Position numbers and translations under genes: made by a program. Below the pieces are notes generated by a model. The model had not been told where the DNA came from. It saw only the letters and a list, made by a program, of their open reading frames with translations, and ran no database searches. From a virus (lineage: Duplodnaviria; Heunggongvirae; Uroviricota; Caudoviricetes), in IMG/VR virus record IMGVR_UViG_3300017917_003727: DNA of 64,000 nucleotides, one strand, 5' to 3'. This document shows positions 18,967 through 63,943 of the stretch, in pieces. How positions within the stretch are numbered: the stretch's first letter is position 1; each line of letters opens with the position of its first letter.

Positions 18967-19585
18967 TAGACTGTCTGTAAAGTTTTTTCTTATCAAAACC
19001 ATTATCTTCTAATAATTTATATAGGTATTTTCTATGTACCGTATTTGAATCACTAACAAAGATAGCGTCAGCTCTTTTTTTATCAATCATATAATTTTGT
19101 AATACTGAAATGAATCTTTTAGATTCATTTTTGTTTTTTAACGAGAAAAGATTAACCAAATCATCATTCTGAACTACAACTTTGTTATTGACTGTAAAAA
19201 TGTTTTTTAAACCAGAGGTATTAACATACTTTAAACAAAACTCTTCAAAATCTATTCTTTTGTTTTGTTTCCAATCAAATATTTTTTCAGGTAAATTATA
19301 TTTTTGTAGTCTTATAATTTTATAATCTGAGTCCGTCATTTCTATTTTTACGTTTCTACCCATATCATCTTGTTTAAAAAGTACCATTTGAGTGTCATCC
19401 AAAACAGATATTATTGATATTTCATATGTAACTTTATTGGCGTTTTCAACAACTACTTCAAACTGTACCTTGTTAGATTCGTCAATACATTTGTTAAAAA
19501 ACAATTCCGCCTTATTTTTTCTTACAAAAGATTTGATGATTTTTTTTCTTTTCTTATTTTTAAACAATACAACCAAATAGTTCAT
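18944..19585 (-). CDS. Hypothetical protein
   Basis: 213-aa minus-strand ORF abutting the dnaJ start. Confidence 0.4.
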
Positions 19586-31981: not shown

Positions 31982-32584
31982 ATGAAAGTTATATTCCTTG
32001 ACCACGATGGCGTAATTTGCCTTTCTTCCGAGTGGGGAGGTCGTTTTAAAAAAGAAAAAAAATTTAGAGAAAAAACGGGTGTTGAAAGAAAATTAAGTTC
32101 ACCGCATTACGGACTGCCAGTTGAATGTAGGTTTGACAATTTTAATAAAAAAGCAATTAACGTTCTTAATGAAATTTTAAAAGAAACAGGTGCTGAGATA
32201 GTTGTATCGTCAGATTGGAAAAGATGGGCAAATGTAGAAGAAATGGGTGAATACTATGAGTCACAGGGTATTGTTAAAAAACCAATTGCATTTACAAAAA
32301 GTCTACAAGATTGTACTCATCATAATGAGAAAACGTTTATTTGGTCAAGAGATTGGGACCTTGAACAATCAAGAAGTGTTGAAATCAAACAATACTTAAT
32401 TGACCATCCTGAAATTACACATTGGGTTGCAATTGATGACCTTAATATGGGAAAAACAGGGTTACATTATGGTATGGAATTCGAACACGATTGGGGGTTA
32501 GACAACTTTGTTTACACACCACTTTCAAATGAAGGTATCAAACAAAACGGAGTTAAAGAAAAAATTTTAAAACATTTGTCATGA
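31982..32584 (+). CDS. HAD-superfamily phosphatase (polynucleotide 3'-phosphatase / nucleotidase-like)
   Basis: N-terminal FLDHDGVI (DxDG motif I) and downstream SSDW / IDD acid motifs. Confidence 0.5.
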   Translation: MKVIFLDHDGVICLSSEWGGRFKKEKKFREKTGVERKLSSPHYGLPVECRFDNFNKKAINVLNEILKETGAEIVVSSDWKRWANVEEMGEYYESQGIVKKPIAFTKSLQDCTHHNEKTFIWSRDWDLEQSRSVEIKQYLIDHPEITHWVAIDDLNMGKTGLHYGMEFEHDWGLDNFVYTPLSNEGIKQNGVKEKILKHLS

Positions 32585-34410: not shown

Positions 34411-34596
34411 ATGTCAGAAGAAGTTAAAGAAACCGAAAAATGTATCATGTGTGGAATTGATACAGGAATCGTTAAACAAAAACCAATTCAAGATAGACTG
34501 GCATATATCGAAGGTGCTGGCCAAATGTGTAGTAAATGTTTTTTAGATTTTTATAAAAAGGTTCACATAAACGATGACACTAAATCGAAGCCATAA
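34411..34596 (+). CDS. Small zinc-ribbon protein
   Basis: CIMCG ... CSKCF. Confidence 0.35.
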   Translation: MSEEVKETEKCIMCGIDTGIVKQKPIQDRLAYIEGAGQMCSKCFLDFYKKVHINDDTKSKP

Positions 34597-35068
34597 AAGA
34601 ACAATTCTTGTCGGCAAAGCTGGTTCAGGAAAAGACTTTCTTAGAAAAAAATTTGAAGGTCGTGGGTTTAAATATGCAATAAGTTATACCACAAGACCAC
34701 CAAGAGAAGGTGAAGTTCATGGTAAAGACTATTATTTTATATCCGAAGACGAGGCTAAAGTTTTAATTGAGTCAGGATTTTTTTATGAATATGTAATCTT
34801 TAACGGATGGATTTATGGAACATCATTAACACAATTCTACAGTGATGATTTATTCATAATGACACCCAAAGGTATTTCAAGAATAAAAGAAGAAGATAGA
34901 GAAAATTCTTTTATTATTTATCTTGATATTCCAACAAATGTTAGAATTAAAAGATTGGGTAAAAGAGAAATGCCTGGTGATTCATTAAGAAGAAGAATTG
35001 AAGCTGATGAAATAGACTTTGATGATTTTATTGATTATGATTTAAGAATAACAAACCCTGATTTCTAA
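34574..35068 (+). CDS. Guanylate kinase-like nucleoside monophosphate kinase
   Basis: P-loop GKAGSGKD and YTTRPPREGEVHGKDYYF signature. Confidence 0.6.
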   Translation: MTLNRSHKRTILVGKAGSGKDFLRKKFEGRGFKYAISYTTRPPREGEVHGKDYYFISEDEAKVLIESGFFYEYVIFNGWIYGTSLTQFYSDDLFIMTPKGISRIKEEDRENSFIIYLDIPTNVRIKRLGKREMPGDSLRRRIEADEIDFDDFIDYDLRITNPDF

Positions 35069-36756: not shown

Positions 36757-38168
36757 TGGGAAAAACACTAATTAGGGAATCGGGAATTAGAGAAATTAAG
36801 GAACTAGCAAAAAGATATCCTAAAGCTAGAATATATTTTCACCAAGATTTGGATGGTGTTACCACCGCAATTGCAATGAAAAAATATCTTGAATCTAATG
36901 GTATCCAAGTTTCTGGTGTTGAAGTTATACAATATGGTGAAAGAGAATTTGCAATTAGTAAAGTAGATGCTGAAGGTGATACAATGCCAGTTTTAGTTGA
37001 TTTTGCACACGGTAAACCAATGTTCAAAATACATACCGACCACCATGATACTCAAGTAGGTGCTGGCGATACAAAGGCAACATCATTTAAAGAATCACCA
37101 TCAAACGTTAGAACAATTTCACAAGTATTATCACCACGTGATATATTCACAGATACCGATATTAATCTAATATCAACCGTAGACTCGGCTAAATTTAAGG
37201 GATTAAAACCTAAAGATATTATGAATTTTGTTTTCAGACTAGACAAAGAAGCTGGTTTGGAAAAAAACAAATTTGCTATGGGTTTAGTTGCTAACAAACT
37301 TCTTTTAGCGTATAAAAACAAAAAAGGTTTTTTGGAATACTTGGTTATGAATTCTGCACCATCCCTATATTCAATATTAAATAATATTAAAAAATACGCA
37401 CAGGAAAATAATCTATTATCTGTTGATGATATGATTAAAAACCAAGAAAAATATATTGAACAACAAAGAACCAGTGAAGACATAAAGTATGATGATGGTA
37501 TTATAGTACAATATGGTACGGGTTACTTAAGAACTGGTTCATATGATAGATACACACCATTTGAATTACACCCTGATGCTGACTTCTTGGTTATATCATA
37601 CCTCAATGGTATGGTTCAATCATCGTGTAACCCATTTAAAGAAAACAGGGCTTTACCTGGTATTAATTTAAAAAAAATCGCTGATGATGTATTGGAATCG
37701 GGAAGGTCTTGGTTTGAATCTAAGATTGTTCCTATCACAACAATTAAATGGGTTAGTGAAAGTGCTGCAGAAGCCGCGACTTCTGTTGGTTTTACTAGCA
37801 AAGATTTGGAAGCTTTTTATCCTCAAATTGTTACAAAAATTAAAAAAGCAGGTGAAAATGTTTGGGAAATATTTAGTAAGATTATGGACAAACCATATTC
37901 TTTATTAACTGAAAATGAATTAACAGTTTTAGATAGATTTGGGATACCACTTTGGGACATTATTAAAACTAACTCAGGTGGACACAGATGTATTACTAAT
38001 ATATCTGGTTTGAATTACTATGGTAGAGCAAGAAGAAGACCTGTGAAAACTTCATACAAGAGAGTAAAAGATGAAAATGATGAAGGTACTCCATATATTA
38101 GATTGATTAAAAATATACAACAACAATTTGCTGATAAGCTAAGAGAAGAAGTTAAATCGTCAACTTAA
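36756..38168 (+). CDS. DHH/DHHA1-family phosphoesterase (NrnA/RecJ-like)
   Basis: HQDLDG, HTDHHD and C-terminal SGGH motifs. Confidence 0.55.
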   Translation: MGKTLIRESGIREIKELAKRYPKARIYFHQDLDGVTTAIAMKKYLESNGIQVSGVEVIQYGEREFAISKVDAEGDTMPVLVDFAHGKPMFKIHTDHHDTQVGAGDTKATSFKESPSNVRTISQVLSPRDIFTDTDINLISTVDSAKFKGLKPKDIMNFVFRLDKEAGLEKNKFAMGLVANKLLLAYKNKKGFLEYLVMNSAPSLYSILNNIKKYAQENNLLSVDDMIKNQEKYIEQQRTSEDIKYDDGIIVQYGTGYLRTGSYDRYTPFELHPDADFLVISYLNGMVQSSCNPFKENRALPGINLKKIADDVLESGRSWFESKIVPITTIKWVSESAAEAATSVGFTSKDLEAFYPQIVTKIKKAGENVWEIFSKIMDKPYSLLTENELTVLDRFGIPLWDIIKTNSGGHRCITNISGLNYYGRARRRPVKTSYKRVKDENDEGTPYIRLIKNIQQQFADKLREEVKSST

Positions 38169-38505
38169 TATTCTGACCCTCTTCGATTCCACACTCATCA
38201 CAAGTACCTGCGGGTAATTCTAAAACATATTGACCTGAACCATTATAATGTTCACAAGGTTCAGTATTACAAGGTTGACAGTTTTTGTGAATCGAAGTTA
38301 TTTTTCTACTTGGGTCAACAAAAATAATATCCAAAGGTGTTATACAGTTTTTCATCCAAAAACTTTGTTCACCATTTTCAGGCATCATAAATAACATACC
38401 ATTAAAATCTTGGTTAAAATTTTGACCCATCATACCTTTTTGAATAGTCTCAGGTGTCATACAAACTCTAACTTTAAAGATATTATCATTTACTAGTACT
38501 CTCAT
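38152..38505 (-). CDS. DUF192-family protein with Cys-rich C-terminus
   Basis: GMLFMM...FWMKN...PLDIIFVD resembles the DUF192 (COG1430) core. Confidence 0.4.
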   Translation of the reverse strand: MRVLVNDNIFKVRVCMTPETIQKGMMGQNFNQDFNGMLFMMPENGEQSFWMKNCITPLDIIFVDPSRKITSIHKNCQPCNTEPCEHYNGSGQYVLELPAGTCDECGIEEGQNIKLTI

Positions 38506-38525
38506 ATTTATTATAAATATAATGT

Positions 38526-38915
38526 ATGAGTAAATACGCTGGTGTAATTGTTAGGTTTGAGAATAAATGTCTTTTGTGTAAAAGGTCACCACATAACGAC
38601 TTTTTACCAAATGTTTGGTCTATACCTTCAGGACACGTTGAAGAAGATGAAAGTGATATATCCGCAGCGGCAAGAGAGTTCTACGAGGAGACAGGATACA
38701 AAGCTAAAAACTTGAGATACATTTCAAAGATGGAAAGTGCTAATGGTAAAGGTGATGTTGCTCTTTTTTTAATGGACGTGAAAAAACCAATTTACCCTGA
38801 TTTAATGGAAGCTAAAGATGGTCATGAACACAGTGAATGTGATTATTTTTCACTTAAAACAATACCACGTACAACAAAGGAACTTAAAAAAGTTTTAGAA
38901 ATTTTGTTGACGTGA
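38526..38915 (+). CDS. NUDIX hydrolase
   Basis: Nudix box GHVEEDESDISAAAREFYEETG. Confidence 0.65.
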   Translation: MSKYAGVIVRFENKCLLCKRSPHNDFLPNVWSIPSGHVEEDESDISAAAREFYEETGYKAKNLRYISKMESANGKGDVALFLMDVKKPIYPDLMEAKDGHEHSECDYFSLKTIPRTTKELKKVLEILLT

Positions 38916-38992
38916 TTTGACTTTTCAAAAATAAAGCTATATTTATTTATCACAATCCCAAAAAGATTTCTTAAAAAAGTTTTCAGGGGGAC

Positions 38993-39023
38993 TTGACAAA
39001 ATCAAAATCCCGTCGTAACTTTG
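38993..39023 (+). promoter_or_regulatory. Promoter TTGACA-N17-TAACTTTG (best match of the conserved module)
   Basis: Perfect -35-like hexamer, 17-nt spacer, -7 box; no ORF downstream for ~1 kb. Confidence 0.55.
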
Positions 39024-39029
39024 TAATCC

Positions 39030-39977
39030 AATTAAGGGAAAATGTTCTTTAACTTATGAATATGTCCAACACAGGACAAAATATAATGGACCCCTCCATC
39101 TATTTCGTTCAGTGTTGATAACAGACATAATTCGGCGGTTTAGCGTCGATACAAGATAACCCCAGCAATGGGACTATAGGGGCGAGAGTTTCAACAGAAC
39201 GGGTAGCTCGGTGTCACGAAAGTGGCTCACAACTAAACAGATTACCTACGGGTAGGTCCTCATGGGCAACAGCTGAGAGGAAATATTCATTCTGACTACG
39301 TGAGGTGTCAGGATTGAGGTGGAGACACCAACAGGAAAAGGTAAAGGGAATGGTTCGACTCAGACGCCAATCTGATGTAGGGCTAGGTCGCCAGTTCATC
39401 ACAGGTATCCAAAGGGTAACCTACCGATATCAAGTTGAACCGTAGTCTTGGCGGATTACAGAAAGGTGAGTGGTATTTCCTTCTTCAAAAGAGAAGCTAG
39501 CCACCTCAGAGCTCATCTTTCATTACACTCACTATGTTGATTTAATTATGAAAAATTAAAACTACAGAAAAGGAAAAGTCTCTGAGCGGTTAAGCTGAAA
39601 GTCACCTAATTCCTCGAGTGGCGACACTAACGGGGAAATTGACAGGACCCCAAGTCCTTCAGTTTTGACTAAGAAAGTCCTAGTACCTGGGCACGGGTTT
39701 AGGGAGTCCGCAAGATTCCATAGAGACGAGTAAAAGTTGAGTAGGATTAACCGATACGAGTGATTGACGTAAACAATCGGTGATGACTCAATACAGATGG
39801 CAACATTTGTGGACAATGTGAAGAACCTCTAGTAAAGGATAATGTCACGAAAGATGGGTCAAGAATACGTGTAGTCTCAGCGTTTCAGCCTTACCACCCC
39901 TTGGATAGTATCTTTGGGCCGACTTCGAAGTTTCAAATGTACACCCCACGATAAACCAATTTCGTGGGGTTTTTTTA
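39030..39977 (+). ncRNA. Candidate large (~950 nt) structured non-coding RNA of unknown class
   Basis: ORF-free on the sense strand, GC ~50% in a 33% GC genome, consensus promoter and intrinsic terminator on the same strand; not recognised as rRNA, tmRNA, RNase P or group II intron by motif inspection. Confidence 0.5.
39944..39977 (+). terminator. Rho-independent terminator
   Basis: CCCCACGA-taaaccaatt-TCGTGGGG then T8. Confidence 0.65.
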
Positions 39978-39987
39978 TTTTATTATC

Positions 39988-40016
39988 TTGACAATGCGAT
40001 AAATAAGAAATATAAT
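39988..40016 (+). promoter_or_regulatory. Sigma-70-consensus-like promoter TTGACA-N17-TATAAT (followed by TAACTTAG)
   Basis: Exact hexamers at exact spacing, 50 nt upstream of the DGQHR gene. Confidence 0.4.
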
Positions 40017-40066
40017 TAACTTAGAAATTTAAAGACCGATTTTGATTGGTAAAAAAATAAATTAAA

Positions 40067-45387: not shown

Positions 45388-46164
45388 ATGGAATTTCCAC
45401 TTGACGAATTAATAGAGATATTTTCATCTGAACTACACCCAAATAATGACCTAAGAACGGTTAAAGATTTAATCTTTAGGCACCCTCTGATGAAGAGTGA
45501 ATATCAAAGTATGTCACTTGAGCAATTGGCACTATTGATATACAGTGTATATTTTGTTTCCAACGGTAGAAAAGTTGAAGTATTAAACAGATTAAGAGAA
45601 AATATAGTTTTTTACATCGTTTGTGACTTTGATTATAGTTACCCAAAAACTGTAAGTTGTGATACTTGCGACGGTGATGGTTATACAGATTGTAGTGGAT
45701 GTGACGGAAGTGGTGAAGTTTCATGTAGTGAATGTGATGGTGAAGGAAGTAGGGAGGTTGAAGATGATGAATGGGAAGATTGTGAGGTATGTAACGGTAA
45801 TGGTGAAGTTTCATGTAGAGAATGTAACGGAAGTGGTAAAGAAACTTGTTATGACTGTGATGGAAATGGTGAGATAGAAAGAGGTGAAGAAATTGATTAT
45901 AGAAATTTATTATATGTGTCAATATTACCTTTATCTGTTATAGAAAAAATGAAACAACAGGATGGAGACCTAACAACTGAATTCAACGAAGAGTTTGAAC
46001 AAGTGTCCAGACTAACTCTAATTTTAGATAGAGACGCATACTCCCGTGCTATTGATGATGATAGTTATTATTGGAGGGATGTGGAAGAAGGTACCGAAAT
46101 GTTTTATGGAGTTGTAGATGGAGAACTAAAAGTAACTGAAGTAGATTATCCAGAATTTAATTAA
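45388..46164 (+). CDS. Protein with six tandem CxxCxGxG (DnaJ-type zinc-finger) motifs
   Basis: CDTCDGDG, CSGCDGSG, CSECDGEG, CEVCNGNG, CRECNGSG, CYDCDGNG; internal near-exact DNA duplication. Confidence 0.5.
   Translation: MEFPLDELIEIFSSELHPNNDLRTVKDLIFRHPLMKSEYQSMSLEQLALLIYSVYFVSNGRKVEVLNRLRENIVFYIVCDFDYSYPKTVSCDTCDGDGYTDCSGCDGSGEVSCSECDGEGSREVEDDEWEDCEVCNGNGEVSCRECNGSGKETCYDCDGNGEIERGEEIDYRNLLYVSILPLSVIEKMKQQDGDLTTEFNEEFEQVSRLTLILDRDAYSRAIDDDSYYWRDVEEGTEMFYGVVDGELKVTEVDYPEFN
45711..45825 (+). repeat. Intragenic direct duplication (ggtgaagtttcatgtagNgaatgt)
   Basis: Two ~25-nt near-identical copies 90 nt apart, in frame. Confidence 0.45.
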
Positions 46165-47999: not shown

Positions 48000-49013
48000 A
48001 TGGAAAGAAAATTAGCAACAATCAGGATTATTACGGACATCAGACCTATTGAAGGTGCTGATAAGATTGAACTTGCCAGTGTTGGCGGTTGGAATGTTGT
48101 TGTTGCCAAAGATGTTGGACATAAGGTTAACGATATGGTAATTTATTGTGAGATTGATTCTTTTCTTCCAATTAGAGAAGAGTTTGAATTCTTACGTAAA
48201 TCGTCTTACAAGAAAATGGGTGACCAAGAAGGTTTCCGTCTGAAAACTATTAAACTTCGTGGTCAGGTTTCTCAGGGACTTATTCTTCCTATTCACGTTT
48301 TACCTTTGGGTGAAATGGTTCACGAAGGTCAGGATGTAACCGAAATGTTGGGTATTGTTAAATATGAACCACCAATTCCTGCAGAACTTGCTGGTAAAGT
48401 TAAAGGTCAGTTCCCATCATTCTTACAAAAGACCGATGAAGAAAGGGTTCAAAACTTGGTTGGTGAATATGAGAAATATAAATTAACTTCTTCTCATCAG
48501 TTTTATGTTACTGAAAAACTTGATGGTTCATCCTCAACATTCTACATCAAAGATGGTGAGTTCGGTGTATGTTCTCGTAATTTAGAATTACTTGAAACGG
48601 AAGGTAACACGTTTTGGAAAGTAGCTCGTGAAATGAACTTGGAAGAAAAACTTAAATCAACAGGTAAAAACATTTGTTTACAAGGTGAACTGATTGGTGA
48701 AGGCATTCAAGGAAATCCATACAAGATTAAAGGTCATAGAGTTATGTTCTTCAACGCCTTTGATATTGATAAACACCAAAGAATGACCATGCCTCAGTTC
48801 TTAGAACTTATGGAAAGTTTAGAACTCCAACACGTACCATGTTTAGAATTACCTTTCTTGTTACCAAGTACAGTTGAAGGTATGTTAAAATATGCTGAGG
48901 GAACATCTGTACTTAACAGACAGACTGAAAGGGAAGGTGTTGTAGTAAGGTCTTACGATAATAAGATTAGTTTCAAAGCAATTTCTAACAAATTTTTGTT
49001 GGAGGAAAAATAA
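48000..49013 (+). CDS. ATP-dependent RNA ligase, Rnl5-like (N-terminal OB-like domain plus nucleotidyltransferase)
   Basis: KxDG motif I (VTEKLDGSSSTFY) and N-terminal IRII...ADKIELASVGGWNVVV domain as in DraRnl/NgrRnl-type ligases. Confidence 0.55.
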   Translation: MERKLATIRIITDIRPIEGADKIELASVGGWNVVVAKDVGHKVNDMVIYCEIDSFLPIREEFEFLRKSSYKKMGDQEGFRLKTIKLRGQVSQGLILPIHVLPLGEMVHEGQDVTEMLGIVKYEPPIPAELAGKVKGQFPSFLQKTDEERVQNLVGEYEKYKLTSSHQFYVTEKLDGSSSTFYIKDGEFGVCSRNLELLETEGNTFWKVAREMNLEEKLKSTGKNICLQGELIGEGIQGNPYKIKGHRVMFFNAFDIDKHQRMTMPQFLELMESLELQHVPCLELPFLLPSTVEGMLKYAEGTSVLNRQTEREGVVVRSYDNKISFKAISNKFLLEEK

Positions 49014-49014
49014 A

Positions 49015-49206
49015 ATGATTACATTTGAATTAAACGAAAAACAAGAAAAAGAACTTAAAGAATGGCAAGAGGCAATTAAAAAAGTATTCGGCGAATACGG
49101 TTCATTTGATTATATCTTTACACCTACTGGTATAGGTAATTGTGTTAAAGTTTATAGTCACTTAGCCAAAACAGAATTGGAATTGACAGATGTTGACTCT
49201 TGGTAA
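49015..49206 (+). CDS. Small hypothetical protein
   Basis: 63-aa ORF. Confidence 0.3.
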   Translation: MITFELNEKQEKELKEWQEAIKKVFGEYGSFDYIFTPTGIGNCVKVYSHLAKTELELTDVDSW

Positions 49207-49228
49207 AAAATTTAATATAATTAACATT

Positions 49229-49666
49229 ATGAACATAAAACAAGCATTGAAAGAAAAAAACAAATTGGCGAAGAAGATTACCGATTTGATGGACAGAGTG
49301 AACAGATATAACTCAATTGATGAGGGTGGTGTTCGTTCATACGAGCCTGAGACAACATTGAGAGTTGCAACCGATTACGTTGAAGAATTGGTTGAACTTA
49401 AAACAAAAATTCACAAAGCAAATGCTGAGGTATATGAGAAGATTTTCCGTATGTCTGAGTACAAGTCATTTGTGAAATATTTGAGGTCTTTGAACTGTAC
49501 CGAAGGAACTTTAGTTCAAAGAGGGTATGGTGACACAACCACTCGTCAAATGACCACAGTAATCACTGAGGTTCAAAGAGACCAAATGGTTGAAAGATAT
49601 GAGTCAATGATTGACCAAATTCAATCTGAGTTGGATGCTCACAATGCAACCACTCAGATAGATTAA
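49229..49666 (+). CDS. Hypothetical protein
   Basis: ATG 49229; ORF-track start 49190 is probably too far upstream. Confidence 0.4.
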   Translation: MNIKQALKEKNKLAKKITDLMDRVNRYNSIDEGGVRSYEPETTLRVATDYVEELVELKTKIHKANAEVYEKIFRMSEYKSFVKYLRSLNCTEGTLVQRGYGDTTTRQMTTVITEVQRDQMVERYESMIDQIQSELDAHNATTQID

Positions 49667-49889: not shown

Positions 49890-49918
49890 TTGACAATAAA
49901 ATAAAAAAATACTATAAT
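49890..49918 (+). promoter_or_regulatory. Sigma-70-consensus-like promoter TTGACA-N17-TATAAT
   Basis: Exact hexamers and spacing, 10 nt upstream of the YceI gene. Confidence 0.45.
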
Positions 49919-49928
49919 TTAAACACTT

Positions 49929-50453
49929 ATGAAAAGAATGACAATTGACAACACCCACTCAGAGATTGGGTTTAAAGTAAGACATCTTATGATTTCAACA
50001 GTTAAAGGTAATTTTAATACTTTTTCTGGTGGAATACAAGAAGACGGAAACGTATTTGTATCCATAAACGTTGGTTCAATCAATACAGGTAACGTAGACC
50101 GAGATAATCATCTTAAGTCTGCCGATTTCTTCAACTCTGAAGAATACCCTACAATTAATTTTGGAGGTAAGATGAGTGAAGACATGTCTACTGTTACAGG
50201 TGAGATTACAATCAAAGGGATAACCAAAGAAGTTACACTTAACACCGAATATAACGGTATGGGTGTTGACCCTTGGGGAAACACAAAGCACGGATGGGAA
50301 ATTACAGGTTCAATCAACCGTAATGATTTTGGTCTTACATGGAACGCTCCACTTGAAACAGGTGGTGTATTGTTAAGTGAAGAAGTTAAACTTAGCATTG
50401 ACGTTCAGATGGTAGAAGTTGTGGAAGAAATGGCTGTAGAATCAGCTGAATAA
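49929..50453 (+). CDS. YceI-family protein (moron-like insert)
   Basis: YceI-like blocks (FKVRHLMISTVKGNF, SINTGNVDRDNHLKSADFF, RNDFGLTWN); own promoter and terminators on both sides. Confidence 0.6.
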   Translation: MKRMTIDNTHSEIGFKVRHLMISTVKGNFNTFSGGIQEDGNVFVSINVGSINTGNVDRDNHLKSADFFNSEEYPTINFGGKMSEDMSTVTGEITIKGITKEVTLNTEYNGMGVDPWGNTKHGWEITGSINRNDFGLTWNAPLETGGVLLSEEVKLSIDVQMVEVVEEMAVESAE

Positions 50454-50477
50454 TCTTCACTCAATTAAAACATTAAA

Positions 50478-50504
50478 ACCCTCACTCAAAAGGTGGGGGT
50501 TTTT
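50478..50504 (+). terminator. Rho-independent terminator, family copy 2
   Basis: CCCTCAC-tcaaaa-GGTGGGGG then T5. Confidence 0.65.
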
Positions 50505-50775: not shown

Positions 50776-53007
50776 ATGTCATTACTATACATAGCACTAT
50801 TCAACCTAATACCAGGTCCGATAGACACAGCAAAAGCTGAAACCATTGGTCAAGTTACCGTCAAGGCTTCGTCAAAAAAAGAAACAGTATCTTCTGTAAT
50901 TAATATTCAAAGAAAGAGTTTAACAATAATGGATGCAGTGTCATCCGAATCAATTAAAAAAACACCTGACAGAACAATTGGGGATGTTTTAAAAAGAGTT
51001 GGTGGTACATCAATACAAAATGATAAGTTTGTAGTTGTTAGGGGTCTTGCTGATAGATACAATTCGGTTTTAGTAAATGGTTCAATCATAGGTTCAACAG
51101 AACCTGATAGGAAATCATTTTCATTTGATTTAATACCATCAAATACAATTGATAATTTAGTTGTTTACAAAACCGCATCACCTGATTTACCTGGTGATTT
51201 TTCAGGTGGAGTAATAAAACTAACAACTAAAGTGGTAGACTCAAAATCAAAATCATTTGATTTTGGATTAGGATATGGAACGTTAAGTTCTTTTAGAAAT
51301 TCTTGGCAAATATCATCATATGTTTTACCTAATAATTTTTTAACTACCAAAGAATTTAGAGCATTATCAAGTGAGGCAAGACACGTAGAGTCACAAAAAA
51401 TAACACAATCTTTTAACCCAACACAAGGATTTAATATCCCTAATTTGACTCTTGTTTATAATCAGGGTAACATGACCAAAAAGTTTTCTTATTTGACAAA
51501 TTTTACATTAAGAAATTCACATAATATTACCACAACACAAAGAAAAGATTATATGTCGGGTAATGATTTAATGTATGATTATACCGACAAGATTTATACT
51601 AACACAACAAGTTTTGGTGGAATTGTAAATTTGAAGTATAAAAAATATGATTTTAAAAATAATATTAATTATTTGAATGAAAATTCTATTACAAATAGAA
51701 ACGGAATTAACTTTGATAATGAACAGTTAATTACAAGTAGTAGTTCTAATCACAATAGAAAGTTTATTTTGATGTCACAATTTGTGACCCCAAAGTACTC
51801 ATTTAATTATACATTGTTACACAGAAGTCAGCCAGATTATAGAGTTAATCCATTTGCCAAGAACATCACATCAAATGGTGATAGTTCGTTTGTATGGAGA
51901 GATTCTTACAGGTTTTGGAGTACCATGAACGAACACACTTTTGGTGGTTATTACAACGATACGATTGGTAAATTCAAATATGGTTTCTACGAACAATTAA
52001 AATACAGAAATTTTGGAGCGAGAGTTTTCAGATACGAACCAAATTACATTTTAAGTGAAATTACGAACAACACCGACAAGTATAATGCATATTCTAACTT
52101 ACTTTCAGGATATGGAATGTATTCTAAAACTTATAATAAGTTTACTACATCAGGTGGAATAAGAATTGAAAATCAAATATTCAAAGTTAATACATATGAT
52201 TTTAGTGGGAGACCACAACAAGTTAATAGAAATTATCTTGATGTATTACCATCATTAAACTTAATCTATGGTGTTAGGAATAATAAAAATATTAGAGCTT
52301 CAGTTAGTAGGACAGTTGCTAGACCTGAGTTTAGAGAAGTAAGTAATTTCTCTTTCTATGACTTTGTTAGAAACGCACAAGTAATTGGAAACCCAAAGTT
52401 ATTAAGAACACAAATAACTAATATTGATTTAAGATACGAGATATATCCATCATCAAAAGAAATTATCACATTCTCAACATTCTATAAAAAATTTACAAAT
52501 CCAATTGAACAAATTGTTGATAATGGTTCGGTACCAAGCAACTTAATTTTAACATTATCTAACCCTAAACAAGCAACAATATACGGTGGAGAATTGGAAA
52601 TAAGGAAATCAATTAATAACAATTTCACAATATATTCCAACTTGTCTTATTTTAAATCTGAAGTTAATATTCAAGGGAGAACAAGACAATTGCAAGGACA
52701 ATCACCATACATTATCAACACAGGATTGTATTATACAAAAGGAAAGTACTCTGTTAATATGTTCTATAATAGAATTGGAGAAAGAATATCGGCAGTAGGA
52801 TTTCAAGGGTATCCCGACATTTATGAAAATGCAAGGGATGTAATTGACTTGACAATTCAATACCAAACAAAGAAGATATCAATTAAATTTGGTGTGTCAG
52901 ACTTGTTAGGGCAATACTCAAAGTTTTATCAAAATAATCAAAATAGAACATTAATTAAAACAAATAACGAACAAACAATAAATCTAAATATAAATTACAA
53001 ATTATGA
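50776..53007 (+). CDS. TonB-dependent receptor-like outer-membrane protein (plug plus beta-barrel)
   Basis: Plug-domain blocks (VRGLADRYNSVLVNGS, RKSFSFDLIPS, VYKTASPDLPGDFSGGVIKLTTK); long Y/N/T-rich barrel-like remainder; atypical N- and C-termini. Confidence 0.55.
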   Translation: MSLLYIALFNLIPGPIDTAKAETIGQVTVKASSKKETVSSVINIQRKSLTIMDAVSSESIKKTPDRTIGDVLKRVGGTSIQNDKFVVVRGLADRYNSVLVNGSIIGSTEPDRKSFSFDLIPSNTIDNLVVYKTASPDLPGDFSGGVIKLTTKVVDSKSKSFDFGLGYGTLSSFRNSWQISSYVLPNNFLTTKEFRALSSEARHVESQKITQSFNPTQGFNIPNLTLVYNQGNMTKKFSYLTNFTLRNSHNITTTQRKDYMSGNDLMYDYTDKIYTNTTSFGGIVNLKYKKYDFKNNINYLNENSITNRNGINFDNEQLITSSSSNHNRKFILMSQFVTPKYSFNYTLLHRSQPDYRVNPFAKNITSNGDSSFVWRDSYRFWSTMNEHTFGGYYNDTIGKFKYGFYEQLKYRNFGARVFRYEPNYILSEITNNTDKYNAYSNLLSGYGMYSKTYNKFTTSGGIRIENQIFKVNTYDFSGRPQQVNRNYLDVLPSLNLIYGVRNNKNIRASVSRTVARPEFREVSNFSFYDFVRNAQVIGNPKLLRTQITNIDLRYEIYPSSKEIITFSTFYKKFTNPIEQIVDNGSVPSNLILTLSNPKQATIYGGELEIRKSINNNFTIYSNLSYFKSEVNIQGRTRQLQGQSPYIINTGLYYTKGKYSVNMFYNRIGERISAVGFQGYPDIYENARDVIDLTIQYQTKKISIKFGVSDLLGQYSKFYQNNQNRTLIKTNNEQTINLNINYKL

Positions 53008-54224
53008 AAAAATTGATTCCATTTATCATGGTATTATTATTGGGTTTGGGTTCATGTAAACCCGAAGAACCAATAGTTCCAACTGCAAACACTGAACTTG
53101 TTGGAACATTAACTGAAAACAAAACTTTAACTGCGGACAAAGTTTGGAGTCTTAAAGGTTATGTTTATGTACCTGAAGGTATTACATTAACTATTGAAGC
53201 GGGAACCAAAATTGTTAGTGACGTTACTGAAAAAGGTGCATTGTGTATTGAAAGAGGTGCTAAAATTTATGCTAATGGAACTGCGGACCAACCAATTATT
53301 TTTACATCAGGACAGTCTTCACCAAAACCTGGTGATTGGGGTGGATTGATAATTTTAGGAAACGCTCCAACTAATAAACCAAATCCAACAATTGAAGGTG
53401 GTGTAGGTAGACCCTATGGTGGTGTTGATGAAAGTGACAACAGTGGTGTGTTAAAGTATGTAAGAGTTGAATACGCTGGTATCGCGGCATTTCCTGGTTC
53501 TGAAATTAACGCATTCACATTTGGTGGTGTAGGAAAAGGAACTGTAGTTGATTACTGTGAATCTTACTACGCTAATGATGACGCATTTGAATTCTTTGGT
53601 GGTAATGTAAACTGTTCACATTTAGTGGCTGTTGGAACTGCTGATGATGATTATGATTTTGACTTTGGATATACAGGTACAATAAAATTTGCAATATCAA
53701 AAAGAGACCCATTATTTGTTGATATGGCAGATGCGGGTAATGGTATTGAGTGTGATAATGATGGTACTGGTTCCGTTGCAATTCCAATAACAAAACCTAA
53801 TTTACAAAATTTCACTCTTATTGGTCCTATAGAGTCAACATCTTTATCAAATCACAACTTAGCAATGAGATGGAGAAGAGGAACTGCATTTAATGTTCAA
53901 TATTCTATTTTCTATGGATACATGAAAGGTGGTTTTAGTATTGAATCTGACATCACCGCAGGGTATTTTAATACAGGTATGAGTACAATGTTCAATAATT
54001 ACATATCATCTGTGGATACCGTAAATACAATAAAAACAAGTTCAACATTATTAACAAAAGAAAACATGTTAGCTCTTTGTAGTAAACAAGGAACAATAAT
54101 AACAAGCTCACAAGTTAAACCTTTTGATAATAATTTCCAAACAATTTCAAGTGTGGTAAATGGACAGTGGGGAGCAATCCCTTCGGGTTCCTCAATTTGG
54201 ACTTTGGGTTGGACAAAATTTTAA
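53004..54224 (+). CDS. Lipoprotein, beta-helix-like
   Basis: Signal plus lipobox (LLLGLGSC); G/T/N-rich repetitive beta-strand composition. Confidence 0.45.
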   Translation: MKKLIPFIMVLLLGLGSCKPEEPIVPTANTELVGTLTENKTLTADKVWSLKGYVYVPEGITLTIEAGTKIVSDVTEKGALCIERGAKIYANGTADQPIIFTSGQSSPKPGDWGGLIILGNAPTNKPNPTIEGGVGRPYGGVDESDNSGVLKYVRVEYAGIAAFPGSEINAFTFGGVGKGTVVDYCESYYANDDAFEFFGGNVNCSHLVAVGTADDDYDFDFGYTGTIKFAISKRDPLFVDMADAGNGIECDNDGTGSVAIPITKPNLQNFTLIGPIESTSLSNHNLAMRWRRGTAFNVQYSIFYGYMKGGFSIESDITAGYFNTGMSTMFNNYISSVDTVNTIKTSSTLLTKENMLALCSKQGTIITSSQVKPFDNNFQTISSVVNGQWGAIPSGSSIWTLGWTKF

Positions 54225-54383: not shown

Positions 54384-55214
54384 ATGAAAAACACAGAAAT
54401 ATATAACGAACTAGTACAGAAGATGAGAGAATTCTTCTTAAAGAGAAATTTCAAAGAAGTTCCTACACAAAGTAGACTATCAATCTTGGCGGCTTGTGAA
54501 AACCCACATTCAGTAAAAACATTTGAATATGGTGGATTACAATGGCCATTACCACAAACAGGCCAAATGTGGTTGGAACATGAACTATTAAAAAACCCTG
54601 AATGGGACGGAGTATTTTGTATTTCAACTTCTTACAGGGAAGAAAAAAATCCAATTGAAGGAAGACACGAAATGATATTCCCAATGTTTGAATTCGAATC
54701 AAAAGGAACTATGAGAGAACTTCACCAACTTGAAGTTAGATTACTTGAACATTTAGGTTTTGAAACACCAGCAATTTGTAAATACGATGATGTTTGTCAA
54801 GAGTATGGTGGTGTTGAAATACTTGAAAACGAACATGAACAAAGAATGTGGGAAGAAAAAGGACCTGTAGTTTCATTACAAAACTTTCCATTAAGAACAA
54901 ACCCATTTTGGAATATGAAACATGGTGGAAATAACATTTATAATAAAATTGATGTTATTCTTTACGGTCAAGAAACAATTGGTTCTGCAGAGAGAAGTTG
55001 TGATGTTGAAGAAATGAAAAACAATTTTTACACAATTGAAAATGGTGCTTACTGTGCAAAGTTGTTTGAATTGTTTGGAAAAGAAAGAGTAGAGAAAGAA
55101 CTTGAAGAATTCTTATCGCTTAATTTCTTCCCGAGATTTGGTGGAGGTATTGGAATGACAAGAATGGCTCGGGCTTACGAATTGATGAAACAAGAACAAC
55201 TACAGATGGTGTAA
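54384..55214 (+). CDS. Class II aminoacyl-tRNA-synthetase-like ligase (AsnA/aspartate-ammonia-ligase-like or EpmA-like)
   Basis: Motif 2 YREEKNPIEGRHEMIFPMFEFE and motif 3 GGGIGMTRM of the class II core; no anticodon-binding domain. Confidence 0.5.
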   Translation: MKNTEIYNELVQKMREFFLKRNFKEVPTQSRLSILAACENPHSVKTFEYGGLQWPLPQTGQMWLEHELLKNPEWDGVFCISTSYREEKNPIEGRHEMIFPMFEFESKGTMRELHQLEVRLLEHLGFETPAICKYDDVCQEYGGVEILENEHEQRMWEEKGPVVSLQNFPLRTNPFWNMKHGGNNIYNKIDVILYGQETIGSAERSCDVEEMKNNFYTIENGAYCAKLFELFGKERVEKELEEFLSLNFFPRFGGGIGMTRMARAYELMKQEQLQMV

Positions 55215-56922: not shown

Positions 56923-57198
56923 ATGATTAAACTATTTAAAGAAAAATTTTTACAGTTGGATTTTGGTATTCAGATGATAATAGTTACACTAACTATTTTA
57001 ATATCAAATCAACTATTGTCCTTCACAACTAAGTTGATGAATTATTCCGACACGTTCGCATTTAATACTGGTCTCATTCTAACCTTTACTTTATTTGTAT
57101 TCCAAGCTTTATTCATATTTTTGGGTATAAAGTCAGTGATAAATTACATAAGAAAAACAAAACAAAATAATATAAATAACAATGAGCAATCTAACTAA
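56923..57198 (+). CDS. Small membrane protein
   Basis: ATG 56923 (ORF-track 56908 is a TTG); three hydrophobic helices. Confidence 0.4.
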   Translation: MIKLFKEKFLQLDFGIQMIIVTLTILISNQLLSFTTKLMNYSDTFAFNTGLILTFTLFVFQALFIFLGIKSVINYIRKTKQNNINNNEQSN

Positions 57199-58048
57199 AT
57201 TCTTGCTTGGACTATCAGTTGTAGTCCTTATGATTTTCAGTTTCACGGGATGTGAGCGTATCGACGCTGGTCACGTTGGAGTAAAAGTAAACCTTTATGG
57301 TAACGGAAAAGGCGTTGATGATGTGACAGAAGTTACTGGTTGGGTATTTTATAACCCAATTTCAACAAAAATTGTTGAGTTTCCAACCTATGTTCAACAC
57401 AAAGAATACAAAGCGATTATGGAAGACGGAAAAGTTGTATCTGACGAATCTTTTGTAATCAACTCAAAAGACGGTTCCGAGTTTCATGTTTCACCACTTC
57501 TTAACTATTCAGTTAAACGTGAAAAAGTTCCTTACATTTTCAACAAATACCGTGTAACACTCGGACAAATTGAAGAAGGATTTCTTAAAACTGCAGTATA
57601 CGATGCGTTTCGTGTTGTTGCTAACTCATATACTGCCGATGAATTGATATCTAATCGTGAATTATTTGAAATAAAAGTAAGAAAAAACCTTGAGGAACAC
57701 CTTGCACCCGAGGGATTTGTCTTGGCACAATTTACTTCTAATCTTGTTTATCCCACTACGTTTAAAAATGCGATTGAAGCTAAGAATAACGCAGTTCAAA
57801 AAGCTTTGACCGCTGAGAATGAAGTTAAAACTGCTGAGGCTCAGGCAAGGATTAAAGTGGCAACCGCAGAAGGTGAAGCGAAGGCGATGTTAACATCCGC
57901 AAAGGCTGAAGCTGAATCTAACAGGTTGAGACAACAAACATTGACACCACTTCTTCTACAACAAATGTGGATTGAAAAATGGAATGGTGGTCTTCCATCC
58001 ACGATGCTGGGTCAAGGACAAAATTTAATGTTCGGACTTAATAAGTAA
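57182..58048 (+). CDS. SPFH/band-7 (prohibitin/HflK-C-like) lipoprotein
   Basis: Lipobox FSFTGC; SPFH core with C-terminal Ala/Glu-rich coiled coil. Confidence 0.6.
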   Translation: MSNLTKFLLGLSVVVLMIFSFTGCERIDAGHVGVKVNLYGNGKGVDDVTEVTGWVFYNPISTKIVEFPTYVQHKEYKAIMEDGKVVSDESFVINSKDGSEFHVSPLLNYSVKREKVPYIFNKYRVTLGQIEEGFLKTAVYDAFRVVANSYTADELISNRELFEIKVRKNLEEHLAPEGFVLAQFTSNLVYPTTFKNAIEAKNNAVQKALTAENEVKTAEAQARIKVATAEGEAKAMLTSAKAEAESNRLRQQTLTPLLLQQMWIEKWNGGLPSTMLGQGQNLMFGLNK

Positions 58049-59511: not shown

Positions 59512-59637
59512 ATGTGGGAGTTAATAATCATAAACAAAGACGACAAAGGTTATTTAGTTCAGGCACCAAATGGTGATACACATTGGATGTCAAAACAGGA
59601 CTATCAAAAGTATTTAGAAAAAATCAATAAAAATTAA
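59512..59637 (+). CDS. Small hypothetical protein (41 aa)
   Basis: ATG 59512 within ORF-track 59392; the upstream part overlaps the previous CDS. Confidence 0.25.
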
Positions 59638-60608
59638 TGTACGGCAATTCTAATCTTGATAAAGATTTTGTGGTTGATGATGACCTAATTAAACTTGCCG
59701 AGTTCGAAGCAAGAATCGCTGCGGGTGATAAGATTGAGCCAAAAGATTGGATGCCGAAAGAATATAGAAAACAACTTATCAGGATGATTGAACAACACGC
59801 TCATTCTGAAATTATTGGTTCTTTACCTGAAGGGACTTGGATTACAAGAGCACCAGGTTTTAGAAGAAAATTAGCATTGATGGCTAAAGTTCAGGACGAA
59901 GTCGGACATGCACAATTATTATATTCCGCAGCTGAAACATTGGGTAAAAGAAGAGAAGATATGGTTAATGATTTAATCAATGGCAAATCAAAATATTCAA
60001 ATGTCTTCAACTATCCAGCAAAGACTTGGGCTGATACCGCAATTATAGGTTGGTTAATTGATGCTGCGGCAATAGTTAATCAATTAGCAAACTCAAAAGG
60101 TTCATATGGTCCTTATTGTAGGGCTTTGGAAAGGATATGTTATGAGGAAAGTTTTCACCTAAAACAAGGTCATAGTAATTCTGTATACTTGGCAACAGGA
60201 ACAGAAAAACAAAGAGAGATGGTTCAAGATGCACTTAATCGTTGGTGGAAACCTGTGATACATTTCTTTGGACCACCTGATTCACAGTCAGTTCATTCAG
60301 AAAAGTTAATAAAATGGAAAGTTAAGATGATGACTAACGACCAAATGAGATTTCAATTCTTTGATATGTATGTCCCAAAGATTAGAGAATTAGGATTAGT
60401 AATCCCTGATGAAAAATTAAAAAGAAATGAAGATGGTACTTGGGATTACTCAGACCCTGATTGGAACGAATTCAAAGAAGTAATCAAAGGAAACGGACCA
60501 TGTAATAAAGAAAGATTGGCGGTTAGAAGGATGGCAGAAGAAAGAGGTAGATGGGTTAGAAAAGCTTTACTAAATAAAGATACTAATTATGTTACACCAC
60601 TAGCATGA
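59637..60608 (+). CDS. PaaA-like ferritin-fold di-iron protein (phenylacetyl-CoA epoxidase subunit A family)
   Basis: [25 protein letters not shown]...[13 protein letters not shown] di-iron carboxylate motifs. Confidence 0.55.
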
Positions 60609-60943
60609 ACGAAATTTTTACAATTACAGAAGCGGCTGAAAAACAATTAAAAAAATTAATGAGTGAAGATAAAAAAGTAACTCAGGAACACTTCCTTAGA
60701 GTTGGTGTAAAAGGTGGTGGGTGTTCAGGATTATCTTATGAATTAGCATTTGATAACTTAGAACAAGATGGTGATAATATTTTTGAAACTAACAATATTA
60801 AAGTTCATATAGATAAAAAATCATTCTTATACCTTTTTGGTACTGAACTTGATTTTACTGACGGATTAAACGGTAAAGGTTTTCAATTTATTAATCCAAA
60901 TGCAACAAGAACTTGCGGATGCGGTGAAAGTTTTGCTATTTAA
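60605..60943 (+). CDS. A-type iron-sulfur carrier (IscA/SufA/ErpA, HesB family)
   Basis: C-terminal CGCGESF motif and the upstream Cys. Confidence 0.6.
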
Positions 60944-62050: not shown

Positions 62051-63943
62051 ATGAAAAAAAACTTATTATTATTTTTGACTTTTGCAATGTCCATGCTTGG
62101 ATATTCGCAGACGTGTCCCACACCAACCACGTCGGGAGTTCACATCACGTTAGATTCTACCTATAAAATCGGGACTTATAGGTCGGGTAAAACGAGTGTC
62201 GGATTGTGTTTTTACAATAGCACATCTGAAAAAATCACAGCAGCACAATACAGAGTATTTTACGACAAATCTGCATTTGCTGGCGTAGACACTATAAAAA
62301 CAAAAAACTCATCATTCTCACAGTATCTTCAGTATGTAGATAATCCATCAGGTGGATTTGTAACTATTACAATTACTTACACTGGTACAAATTCGAGTTT
62401 CAATATTCCAAACGGAGCTTTGTTTGAAATTGTATTCAAACATACTTCAGCACTTGCAACAACTTATTTCTCACCAACTGATATGACATTTAATGGTGGT
62501 TCATCTTTTAGTCAAACAGCAACCAACCAAGCGGGTAACGACTACACTTTGACACTAACAAATTTCGGTGGTAAATTCGAGAAACAAAAAATGTCTTACA
62601 AGGGTAAATTTGTTAACGTTCAAGGCTCAGCAGCTAAAAACCTAACAGTATCTTTGGAAAAGAAATTGAAATCAGGTGGAAGTTGGAGTTATGTTCAAAC
62701 ATCGGTTACAAACACATCAGGTAGATTTAATTTTACAGATGTTGAAATCGATACAACTGCTTGGAATGTAAGAATTGCGGTTAAAGGTGATACTATGGGT
62801 GTAGGTTCTATTGTGTCTGTATCAGATGCTCAAAGAATCAACCAATACGTATTAGGAACTCAAACACCAACAGGATTTGATTTCTACACTTCAGATGCTA
62901 ACGGAGATGATAAGATTACAATATCAGACGTTTATAGTGTTTACGGTAGAGTTGGTGGAAGATTCACAGCATTCCCTAATTCAGTTCAAGACGTATTGTT
63001 CTTCACTGAATCTGAATACAACACAATTAATAATTCATCTACAAACTATACTTCAACAATTCAAGGTGTAACTAATTTTACATTTGATATTATTGCAGGT
63101 CAACCTGACTCAGTAACATATTATGTTGTATGTCCTGGTGATGCTAATGGAACAGGTTATCACATGGCTCGTATGATTCCTATTGAAATTGTAAATCCAA
63201 ATAATGCTCACAAACACATTATTGATGTTACAACTCACTACGACGACGAGACACTTAAGACTATTGAAGTTAACTATCCTAAATTAGGTGTTGATGCTGA
63301 AGACGTAGTTTCTATTCCTGTTAAAGTTAAAACAAACGGTATTGAATTAGGTTCATTACAATTGAGTATGAAATACGATTCTACCCTGTTAACATTTAAA
63401 GGTGTGAAAAATGAAAGTAAAACTTCTTATTGGATTTCTTTTGTTAACCCATCTGAAGGTGTTGTTGAGTGGGGTGGTTACGACCCTACAAATAACAAAC
63501 ACTTAATGAAAGATGGTGAGATGTTTTTTACTTTAGAATTCACCGCAAAGAAACCACAAAATGATTGGGGTAAAAGTCCTTTATATGTGACAAGAAAATT
63601 TGCTGGTAATGCATCCGCAACTGATTTAGTTATTACACCAACTGATGGAATTATTCAAGTTTTCAGAATGTCAGGACCAACCAACTTCAAAGATTTGGGA
63701 TTAAGTCCAAACCCTTCAGATAAAACAATGTACTTTACATTTAAAGTATATCAAGATGGTAAAACATCAATTAGTTTATACGACTTGATTGGTAAAGAAC
63801 AAGTAAAAGTAGTTGAAGGTTATTACCCTGTTGGAATCTACACAGAACCTAAAGACATCTCAATGTTATCACCAGGTATGTACTTGGCAATTTTGAGAAC
63901 TGAAGAGAAAGTGGTAGTAAAAAAAGCAATTAAAAACAATTAA
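62051..63943 (+). CDS. Secreted protein with type IX secretion system C-terminal sorting domain
   Basis: N-terminal signal peptide; C-terminal ~80 aa matches the Por/T9SS CTD pattern (KTSISLYDLIGKEQ...GMYLAILRTEEKVVVKKAIK). Confidence 0.6.
   Translation: MKKNLLLFLTFAMSMLGYSQTCPTPTTSGVHITLDSTYKIGTYRSGKTSVGLCFYNSTSEKITAAQYRVFYDKSAFAGVDTIKTKNSSFSQYLQYVDNPSGGFVTITITYTGTNSSFNIPNGALFEIVFKHTSALATTYFSPTDMTFNGGSSFSQTATNQAGNDYTLTLTNFGGKFEKQKMSYKGKFVNVQGSAAKNLTVSLEKKLKSGGSWSYVQTSVTNTSGRFNFTDVEIDTTAWNVRIAVKGDTMGVGSIVSVSDAQRINQYVLGTQTPTGFDFYTSDANGDDKITISDVYSVYGRVGGRFTAFPNSVQDVLFFTESEYNTINNSSTNYTSTIQGVTNFTFDIIAGQPDSVTYYVVCPGDANGTGYHMARMIPIEIVNPNNAHKHIIDVTTHYDDETLKTIEVNYPKLGVDAEDVVSIPVKVKTNGIELGSLQLSMKYDSTLLTFKGVKNESKTSYWISFVNPSEGVVEWGGYDPTNNKHLMKDGEMFFTLEFTAKKPQNDWGKSPLYVTRKFAGNASATDLVITPTDGIIQVFRMSGPTNFKDLGLSPNPSDKTMYFTFKVYQDGKTSISLYDLIGKEQVKVVEGYYPVGIYTEPKDISMLSPGMYLAILRTEEKVVVKKAIKNN

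Follow-up and report, generated by a model that had tools for sequence, protein, structure and literature searches.

An RNA ligase gene in an uncultured phage genome

The viral record IMGVR_UViG_3300017917_003727 (Caudoviricetes) includes a stretch of 64,000 nucleotides (nt), referred to here over its whole length as the window, in which an earlier reading of the letters alone (the original prediction) had placed an Rnl5-type RNA ligase with a possible function in RNA repair or counter-defense. The open reading frame (ORF) in question occupies 48000–49013 on the plus strand, runs from ATG to TAA, and encodes 337 amino acids (aa). It sits inside a tightly packed run of plus-strand genes (~46.7–49.7 kilobases, kb), its start codon lying 2 nt past the stop of a preceding 52-aa ORF and the next ORF beginning 2 nt past its own stop. 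No terminator-like site was predicted around the ligase at 46.7–49.7 kb, and a scan for sigma-70 promoters around the gene was uninformative (18 sites versus 19.3 expected).

The KxDG motif and the preceding N-terminal OB-like module described in the original prediction are both present: the peptides IRIITDIRPIEGADKIELASVGGWNVVVAKD...MVIYCEIDSFLP were found in the translation, and the motif reads KLDG (residues 173–176). The OB domain, the signature module of Rnl5, spans aa 5–98 (48012–48293, plus strand; PF21189, the PHA02142 OB-fold domain, E 3.8e-35) and carries D53. The nucleotidyltransferase (adenylyltransferase) domain spans aa 167–327 (48498–48980, plus strand; PF09414, RNA_ligase, E 5.8e-25) and contains K173-L-D175-G, R193, E230, F251, E312, and K326. 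Lys173, the predicted AMP-accepting nucleophile, is specified by the codon AAA at 48516–48518 (plus strand) and aligns with K170 of NgrRnl, the RNA ligase of Naegleria gruberi.

Family membership and active site

The ligase scored 207.9 bits against the NCBIfam equivalog TIGR02306 (RNA_lig_DRB0094), above the cut-off of 151.15 and over model positions 2–340 of 341, and matched phrog_968 ('RNA ligase') in PHROGs at 2.2e-87. Among PDB sequences the best match was NgrRnl (5COT; E 9e-78, query 3–335, chain 5–336 of 340), with 155 of 326 aligned positions identical (47.5%), and the only matches at E ≤ 1 were the wild-type N. gruberi enzyme and its point mutants. With four independent libraries in agreement, the sequence identifies the ORF as an RNA ligase of the Rnl5 (DraRnl/NgrRnl) family, the type originally proposed.

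The ATP- and metal-binding residues of NgrRnl have been defined by structure and mutagenesis, and comprise R4, D53, and K121 of the OB module together with T145, D146, R149, K170 (the nucleophile), D172, R190, E227, F248, E312, and K326 as nucleotidyltransferase-domain contacts (PMC7261155). Once the numbering of the PDB chain, which is offset by one residue, has been corrected, the window ligase has the same amino acid at each of these 13 active-site and ATP-contact positions (R3, D53, K121, T145, D146, R149, K173, D175, R193, E230, F251, E312, and K326). The OB-module contacts are kept along with the PF21189 module itself, D53 falling within its span and R3 and K121 just beyond it, and motifs I (K173), Ia, III, IIIa, IV (E312), and V (K326) are intact. 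The motif V lysine stands 11 residues before the C-terminus, and the appended C-terminal domain seen in Rnl1, Rnl2, and Rnl3 is absent. From this conservation we infer that the gene almost certainly encodes a catalytically active Rnl5 ligase.

Two outcomes named in advance as telling against this identity were not seen: the residues of motifs IV and V are in place, and the PDB matches were to NgrRnl variants only, not to a DNA ligase or mRNA capping enzyme. That the ORF functions as a DNA ligase or capping enzyme, or is an inactive relic, is scarcely credible. Pfam did return weak matches to DNA_ligase_A_M (E 0.0057) and mRNA_cap_enzyme (E 0.027), because the nucleotidyltransferase fold is common to all of these enzymes, but both fell far under their cut-offs (16.8 versus 26.2 bits and 14.8 versus 29.6 bits, respectively), and both identities were rejected; the Rnl5 models and NgrRnl, by contrast, match over the full length, with every catalytic residue intact. 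The ligase is 52–86% identical over its full length to genes at 20 of 22 IMG/VR loci (the other two matches are partial). At most of the 22 loci the identity is 57–86%, a level that indicates purifying selection, and the sequence effectively refutes this alternative.

NgrRnl (PDB 5COT/5COU) and DraRnl (Deinococcus radiodurans DR_B0094), the two characterized Rnl5 enzymes, have the same layout as the window ligase (N-terminal OB domain, C-terminal adenylyltransferase domain, nothing past motif V) at 339/342 aa versus 337. Compared with NgrRnl, the window ligase has gained 3 residues ahead of motif I and lost 5 near residue 275. Whereas NgrRnl and DraRnl are encoded by cells, the window ligase belongs to an uncultured jumbo-phage-like genome; it also lacks a counterpart to the DEDDh-like partner gene of the Deinococcus operon. 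T4 Rnl2 and the kinetoplastid RNA-editing ligases share PF09414 and, like Rnl5, prefer 3'-OH RNA/5'-PO4 duplex nicks in vitro, but the Rnl2 family has a C-terminal domain where the window ligase has the PF21189 N-terminal OB module instead.

Relatives of the ligase and their gene neighborhoods

The exact ligase protein occurs elsewhere only on one 3.2 kb Joint Genome Institute contig (sample 3300029932), and megablast of the region at 44–52 kb found no DNA-level match among 50,697 phage records. Rnl5 homologs are found in 348 cultured phage records (341 cover at least 80% of the query), all of them less than 60% identical to the window ligase (best 48%). Cultured large phages with a phrog_968 Rnl5 include Sinorhizobium phage phiM12, Synechococcus phage S-CREM1, Microcystis phage Mic1, and Burkholderia phage BcepSaruman. 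Such genes reside in genomes typically larger than 90 kb, are usually annotated 'RNA ligase', and sometimes lie near phosphoesterases and tRNA-related genes; in phiM12, a metallophosphatase, a Macro domain, and a peptidyl-tRNA hydrolase are within 5.5 kb of the Rnl5 gene.

Around the IMG/VR relatives of the ligase (loci designated by L numbers), ARAGORN found arrays of 10–17 tRNA genes within a few kb (L004/L005, L012, L014, L015, and L021). Rfam models detected GOLLD RNA in the ±10 kb surrounding the ligase for 11 of the 20 non-redundant relatives (L001, L002, L004, L007, L009–L013, L015, and L020) and transfer-messenger RNA (tmRNA) at seven ligase loci (L001, L004, L007, L011, L013, L014, and L015). 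Some ARAGORN calls were odd (4-base anticodon 'gaaa', 2-base anticodon, overlong tRNA-Pro, tRNA-Thr; L012 3026–3102, L014 84–174, L004 601–978), and a dubious tmRNA call in L004 overlaps two tRNAs. Other structured RNAs at these loci were a 'freshwater-1' motif within the L015 tRNA array (2853–2915) and, in L017 (17160–17233), a self-cleaving ribozyme of the Pistol class (47.7 bits) that lies downstream of the ligase at a distance of 6 kb.

Clustering of all locus ORFs revealed a recurrent cassette in ~9–10 relatives, including L015 (7543–13407), L001, L004, L007, and L009–L013. In order, it consists of a cREC_REC protein (PF20274, 1e-21), a Pyr_excise-like ORF (marginal, 1.7e-4), a calcineurin-like metallophosphoesterase (8e-8), a 64-aa Cys/His ORF, Rnl5, an Rnl1-type ligase (PF09511, 4e-17, motif EKMDGS), a 200-aa membrane protein, and an M23 peptidase, past which lie GOLLD, tRNA-Met, and tmRNA. 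The cassette puts two different RNA ligases, Rnl5 and the Rnl1-type enzyme, in tandem.

A second layout is common to the window, L020, and L002, and runs from GOLLD (~8–9 kb upstream) through small ORFs to Rnl5, a 63-aa ORF, and a 158-aa ORF. The 63-aa ORF (49015–49206, plus strand), the recurrent Rnl5 neighbor that directly follows the ligase in the window, had no Pfam or PHROG match; its homologs follow closely after the ligase in L011 and L020, lie near it in L002, and fall between Rnl5 and Rnl1 in L088 and L125. The 158-aa ORF (49190–49666, plus strand), a faintly DUF6847-like coiled-coil protein (PF20935, 2e-4, under the cut-off), travels with the 63-aa ORF and has homologs near the ligase in L002, L018, and L020.

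The HAD phosphatase to which the original prediction had assigned possible 3'-end healing was also recovered (31982–32584, plus strand), and more specifically proved to be a standalone SAK-HAD, the 'Swiss Army Knife' HAD of RNA repair (PF18143, 9.4e-20, 71.8 versus 27.5 bits), with intact motifs I (DHDGV), II (IVVSS), and IV (VAIDD). Standalone SAK-HAD proteins have been described as the 3'-phosphatase of jumbo-phage RNA repair (PMC7824862), and the window protein is a candidate healer of 3'-phosphate ends. PDB sequences included no significant relative of it. A homolog adjoins the ligase in L020, between the 63-aa and 158-aa ORFs, and another lies 3 kb upstream of the ligase in L016; in L085 and L099 the HAD gene is found at a similar offset from GOLLD.

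GOLLD RNA and its link to Rnl5

The conserved 3' core of GOLLD lies at 39461–39883 in the window (plus strand; Rfam RF02032, full model, 299.4 bits, E 1e-84), within a 1.15 kb ORF-free gap (38916–40066) at a local GC peak, 8.1 kb upstream of the ligase. Alignment of the 3' flanks revealed a hairpin and a run of seven T residues after GOLLD in the window, L020, and L002 (CCCCACGA...TCGTGGGG-TTTTTTT, about 39950–39995), whereas cassette-type relatives (L004, L007, L009, L010, and L013) have tRNA-Met ~10–20 nt past GOLLD instead. A minus-strand DUF192 protein and a NUDIX hydrolase are encoded ~0.5 kb upstream of the core, at the border of its ORF-free gap (window 38152–38915, L002 405–1158); speculatively, the NUDIX enzyme could produce 5'-monophosphate RNA ends. 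The window GOLLD had no blastn match among cultured phages.

We scanned IMG/VR for GOLLD with a 20-position fixed-spacing motif from the conserved core, which yielded at least 120 loci with short stored flanks (median ~10 kb in total). Rnl5 was present at 10 of 120 GOLLD loci among the matches listed, six of these on contigs already seen. Where at least 5.5 kb of upstream sequence was stored (n = 47 among the matches listed), Rnl5 occurred at 7 loci, an Rnl1-type ligase at 10, and the 200-aa membrane protein at 21; with at least 7 kb downstream (n = 29 among the matches listed), Rnl5 occurred at 2 and a 353-aa protein, an M20 peptidase, and ClpB at 15 each. Cassettes of cREC, metallophosphoesterase, and Rnl1 without Rnl5 exist at GOLLD loci (L032, L048, and L103; L062 is a further GOLLD locus listed with such a cassette), and phiM12 and S-CREM1 have Rnl5 with no GOLLD nearby. 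Rnl5 is, on these counts, a facultative part of a variable RNA island and not an obligate partner of GOLLD.

The most consistent GOLLD neighbors are not ligases (L015 14706–20613; 30–41 of 120 GOLLD loci among the matches listed, L026–L145). Upstream is the 200-aa membrane protein, and downstream are tmRNA on the opposite strand, the 353-aa protein (without family match), an M20/M28-like peptidase, and a ClpB-like ATPase. We regard these four proteins as candidate GOLLD-associated proteins. A cryo-electron microscopy study of GOLLD places it close to tRNA islands, does not mention ligases, and describes its function as unknown (PMC12286853); our literature search found no paper connecting GOLLD with RNA ligases.

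Proposed role in RNA repair

Rnl5 enzymes seal 3'-OH/5'-PO4 nicks in duplexes (PMC5397189; see also PMC4408790 for the sealing biochemistry). They require Mn2+ and the OB domain, and their 3'-OH strand must be RNA (DraRnl needs at least two ribonucleotides), while DNA or RNA is tolerated in the remaining strands (PMC5397189). Bacterial viruses are among the carriers of Rnl5, the physiological functions of which have been called uncharted (PMC5397189). By homology with DraRnl and NgrRnl, Lys173 of the window ligase would attack ATP in a two-metal (Mn2+) reaction aided by the N-terminal OB domain, forming ligase-AMP; the AMP would then be handed to a 5'-PO4 end, and attack by the 3'-OH of the RNA strand would seal a nick held in a duplex.

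By analogy with these enzymes, the window ligase most likely seals 3'-OH/5'-PO4 nicks in structured RNA. Because the gene sits in the lineage's region of tRNA, tmRNA, GOLLD, and RNA-repair genes, we infer that its likely task is to reseal nicks arising during infection in the duplex stretches of tRNAs or of other structured RNAs, and that it may in this way serve counter-defense. We consider the combined statement, an active Rnl5 ligase with an RNA-repair role in resealing nicked structured RNAs, to be reasonably probable, and put RNA repair or counter-defense as the role of the gene at even chances or slightly better. The neighborhood supports such a role indirectly, by association, through the tRNA arrays, GOLLD, tmRNA, and cassette of the relatives and the SAK-HAD of the window. 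The functional part of the original prediction has this same indirect support from the setting in the relatives, including the SAK-HAD adjoining the ligase in L020.

The chemistry of the broken ends bears on which nicks the ligase could repair. Breaks made by metal-dependent nucleases of the Toprim/OLD type carry 3'-OH and 5'-PO4 ends and would therefore be sealable without end healing. The Toprim nuclease P2-OLD leaves 5'-phosphate and 3'-OH ends, and a single anticodon-stem nick made by P2-OLD H332A was resealed by T4 Rnl1 or Rnl2 alone (PMC12445682). Since such ends need no healing, the missing kinase would not be fatal to the repair idea. Cyclic-phosphate/5'-OH breaks would require the distant HAD phosphatase together with a kinase, encoded outside the window or absent. 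The earlier suggestion that the system might be incomplete here or use a different end chemistry is consistent with these considerations and with the kinase searches of the window.

A number of observations weigh against a role in RNA repair. No gene of the window has a functional tie to the ligase, the immediate neighbors of which are small ORFs without assigned function, and the SAK-HAD gene lies 16 kb upstream, a loose association. The 64-kb window contains no tRNA genes, and Pfam searches over its 88 plausible ORFs found no polynucleotide kinase, in line with what had been predicted, nor RtcB, 2H, cREC, or Rnl1. The same partners were not found by PHROGs among the ORFs at 31.5–33.1, 34.6–38.2, and 40–47.9 kb and four ORFs between 49.0 and 55.2 kb, and a Walker-A scan of the window gave no polynucleotide kinase. 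In tblastn searches of the relatives' genes against the whole window, cREC, the Pyr_excise-like protein, the metallophosphoesterase, and Rnl1 had no match at E < 1e-3, nor did the 200-aa membrane protein, M23, M20, ClpB, and YqeY; the one match was that of the L020 HAD. Gene order near the ligase is hardly conserved, L020 alone being syntenic with the window, and we know of no physiological substrate for any phage Rnl5. The relatives represent one phage lineage, so their neighborhood associations are not independent, and shared ancestry inflates the frequency of GOLLD as counted from the ligase side. Finally, the sole genetic study of the Rnl5 family, on DraRnl, points to DNA repair after irradiation (PMC5397189).

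The sole P-loop kinase met in the window searches was a guanylate-kinase-like ORF (34574–35068), which we considered as a hidden polynucleotide kinase and rejected (Guanylate_kin end to end; phrog_1815, 1.6e-34). Pfam matches to Serglycin were artefacts of the Gly-Ser linkers between concatenated ORFs.

The main alternative is a function in DNA repair or replication: as proposed for DraRnl in irradiated Deinococcus, the ligase would seal phage DNA nicks ending in at least two ribonucleotides on the 3' side, for example after the synthesis of ribonucleotide patches. Rnl5 does accept DNA in the 5'-PO4 and template strands (PMC5397189), the relatives' cassette includes the marginal Pyr_excise-like (pyrimidine-dimer glycosylase-like) ORF, and in S-CREM1 a gene annotated as a pyrimidine dimer glycosylase lies 6 kb away from Rnl5. 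The recurrent neighbors of the ligase, however, are RNA-related (tRNAs, tmRNA, GOLLD, the cREC cyclic-phosphate domain, and the Rnl1-type ligase), and the primase, Mre11/Rad50-like proteins, and nucleases of the window are encoded 38–45 kb away from it. We regard a DNA-directed function as rather unlikely.

Less likely again is a dedicated function of the ligase in processing or maintaining the structured RNAs of the phage itself, for example in joining or circularizing GOLLD or GOLLD-linked tRNA pieces, as opposed to mending damage done by the host. The occurrence of GOLLD within 10 kb in the window as well as in the 11 relatives, on either side of the ligase and despite scant protein synteny, would fit such a function, as would the linkage of GOLLD to tRNAs (PMC12286853). 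The association is nevertheless weak when counted from the GOLLD side, both upstream and downstream; the consistent neighbors of GOLLD are other genes, cassettes without Rnl5 exist, two cultured phages keep Rnl5 with no GOLLD near it, and the GOLLD cage assembles from unligated in vitro transcripts (PMC12286853). A related and similarly doubtful proposal would unite Rnl5 with the GOLLD nanocage RNA, phage tRNAs, tmRNA, and a changing set of end healers in one functional island for RNA maintenance, where the ligase might act on GOLLD-associated RNAs, for instance on nicked tRNAs brought to the cage or tethered to it.

Resealing of nicked structured RNA, the role that we favor, invites comparison with known heal-and-seal systems. 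T4 repairs tRNAs cut by the anticodon nuclease PrrC with Rnl1 and Pnkp, whereas the window ligase is an Rnl5 (duplex nicks) and not an Rnl1 (anticodon loops). The repertoire of jumbo-phage RNA repair has already been reviewed, and includes ligases, cRec, SAK-HAD, calcineurin-like phosphatases, and tRNAs (Iyer et al. 2021, PMC7824862). As in T4 and these jumbo-phage toolkits, a phage ATP-dependent RNA ligase is accompanied by end-healing phosphoesterases in the relatives of the window, where these are of the cREC, calcineurin-like, and SAK-HAD kinds and where another ligase, of the Rnl1 type, and extensive sets of tRNAs are also present. In the window itself, in contrast to T4, polynucleotide kinase, Rnl1, and cREC were not found in 64 kb, and the HAD is standalone and distant.

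Other genes of the window

The window has a GC content of 31% and dense, mostly plus-strand coding, with many ORFs that lack a family match. We treat it as part of an uncultured jumbo phage; its closest relatives (ligase identity up to 86%) lie on IMG/VR contigs, several of them 195–295 kb long. Genes for replication, transcription, and housekeeping include a primase, a PD-(D/E)XK nuclease, an Mre11/Rad50-like pair, a sigma-70 factor, an amidase, DnaJ, two DNA methyltransferases, thioredoxin, and glutaredoxin. Auxiliary genes encode glutamine-synthetase-like, guanylate kinase, NUDIX, YceI, TonB-dependent receptor, SPFH, and PaaA-like oxygenase proteins and a protein with a tail of the type IX secretion system (T9SS). 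The T9SS tail and TonB receptor suggest that the host may be a member of the Bacteroidota.

Downstream of the ligase run, a YceI-like gene (49929–50453; PF04264, 3.7e-42) is preceded by a perfect 12/12 sigma-70 consensus promoter (TTGACA-17-TATAAT, 49890–49918) and closed by a terminator-like hairpin (50475–50503), and looks like a self-contained moron. The segment at 50776–54224 encodes a TonB-dependent receptor-like outer-membrane protein (743 aa, Plug and beta-barrel), an unusual phage cargo, and then a 406-aa lipoprotein-like ORF with homologs near the ligase in L002 and L020. Next comes a 276-aa protein (54384–55214) with a class II aminoacyl-tRNA-synthetase-like catalytic domain (PF00152, 1.4e-10; phrog_29758, 8e-95) and no anticodon-binding domain; it is 77–81% conserved in L018 and L020 and could be an AsnA- or EpmA-like amidoligase. 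An SPFH/Band-7 protein is encoded ~0.5–9 kb downstream of Rnl5 in the window (57182–58048), L008 (12836–13663), L022 (10767–11558), and S-CREM1 (L025; 15860–16678).

Farther away, a 630-aa secreted protein (62051–63943) has a weak match to a T9SS C-terminal sorting domain (PF18962, 25.7 versus 27 bits). Metabolic genes at 59637–60943 and 33216–34409 specify a PaaA/PaaC-like subunit of a di-iron oxygenase (5.5e-80), a protein of Fe-S cluster biosynthesis, and a short protein resembling glutamine synthetase. Upstream of the ligase, a 258-aa ORF (45388–46164) contains a run of zinc-finger repeats of the CxxCxGxG type, similar to those in the central domain of DnaJ (under the Pfam cut-off), and is separate from the full-length DnaJ at 19584–20576.

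Implications for phage Rnl5 ligases

Rnl5 ligases occur widely among bacteria, archaea, protists, and large phages, and the window ligase adds a member to this known family, which is common in large phages, with no new chemistry. Its points of interest are modest, and lie in the alternative genomic settings of one ligase and in its regional association with GOLLD. The lineage offers a candidate protein neighborhood for GOLLD and, were the island reading true, it would provide the first enzyme partnered with GOLLD and the first natural substrate of Rnl5. The lineage also amounts to a natural experiment, in which Rnl5 occurs alone, beside SAK-HAD, or in a cassette with cREC, metallophosphoesterase, and Rnl1, always in a region of tRNA, tmRNA, and GOLLD. 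These varied settings could guide work on which RNA breaks Rnl5 repairs and on whether RNA-nicking defenses of the Toprim or PIN type are countered by it.

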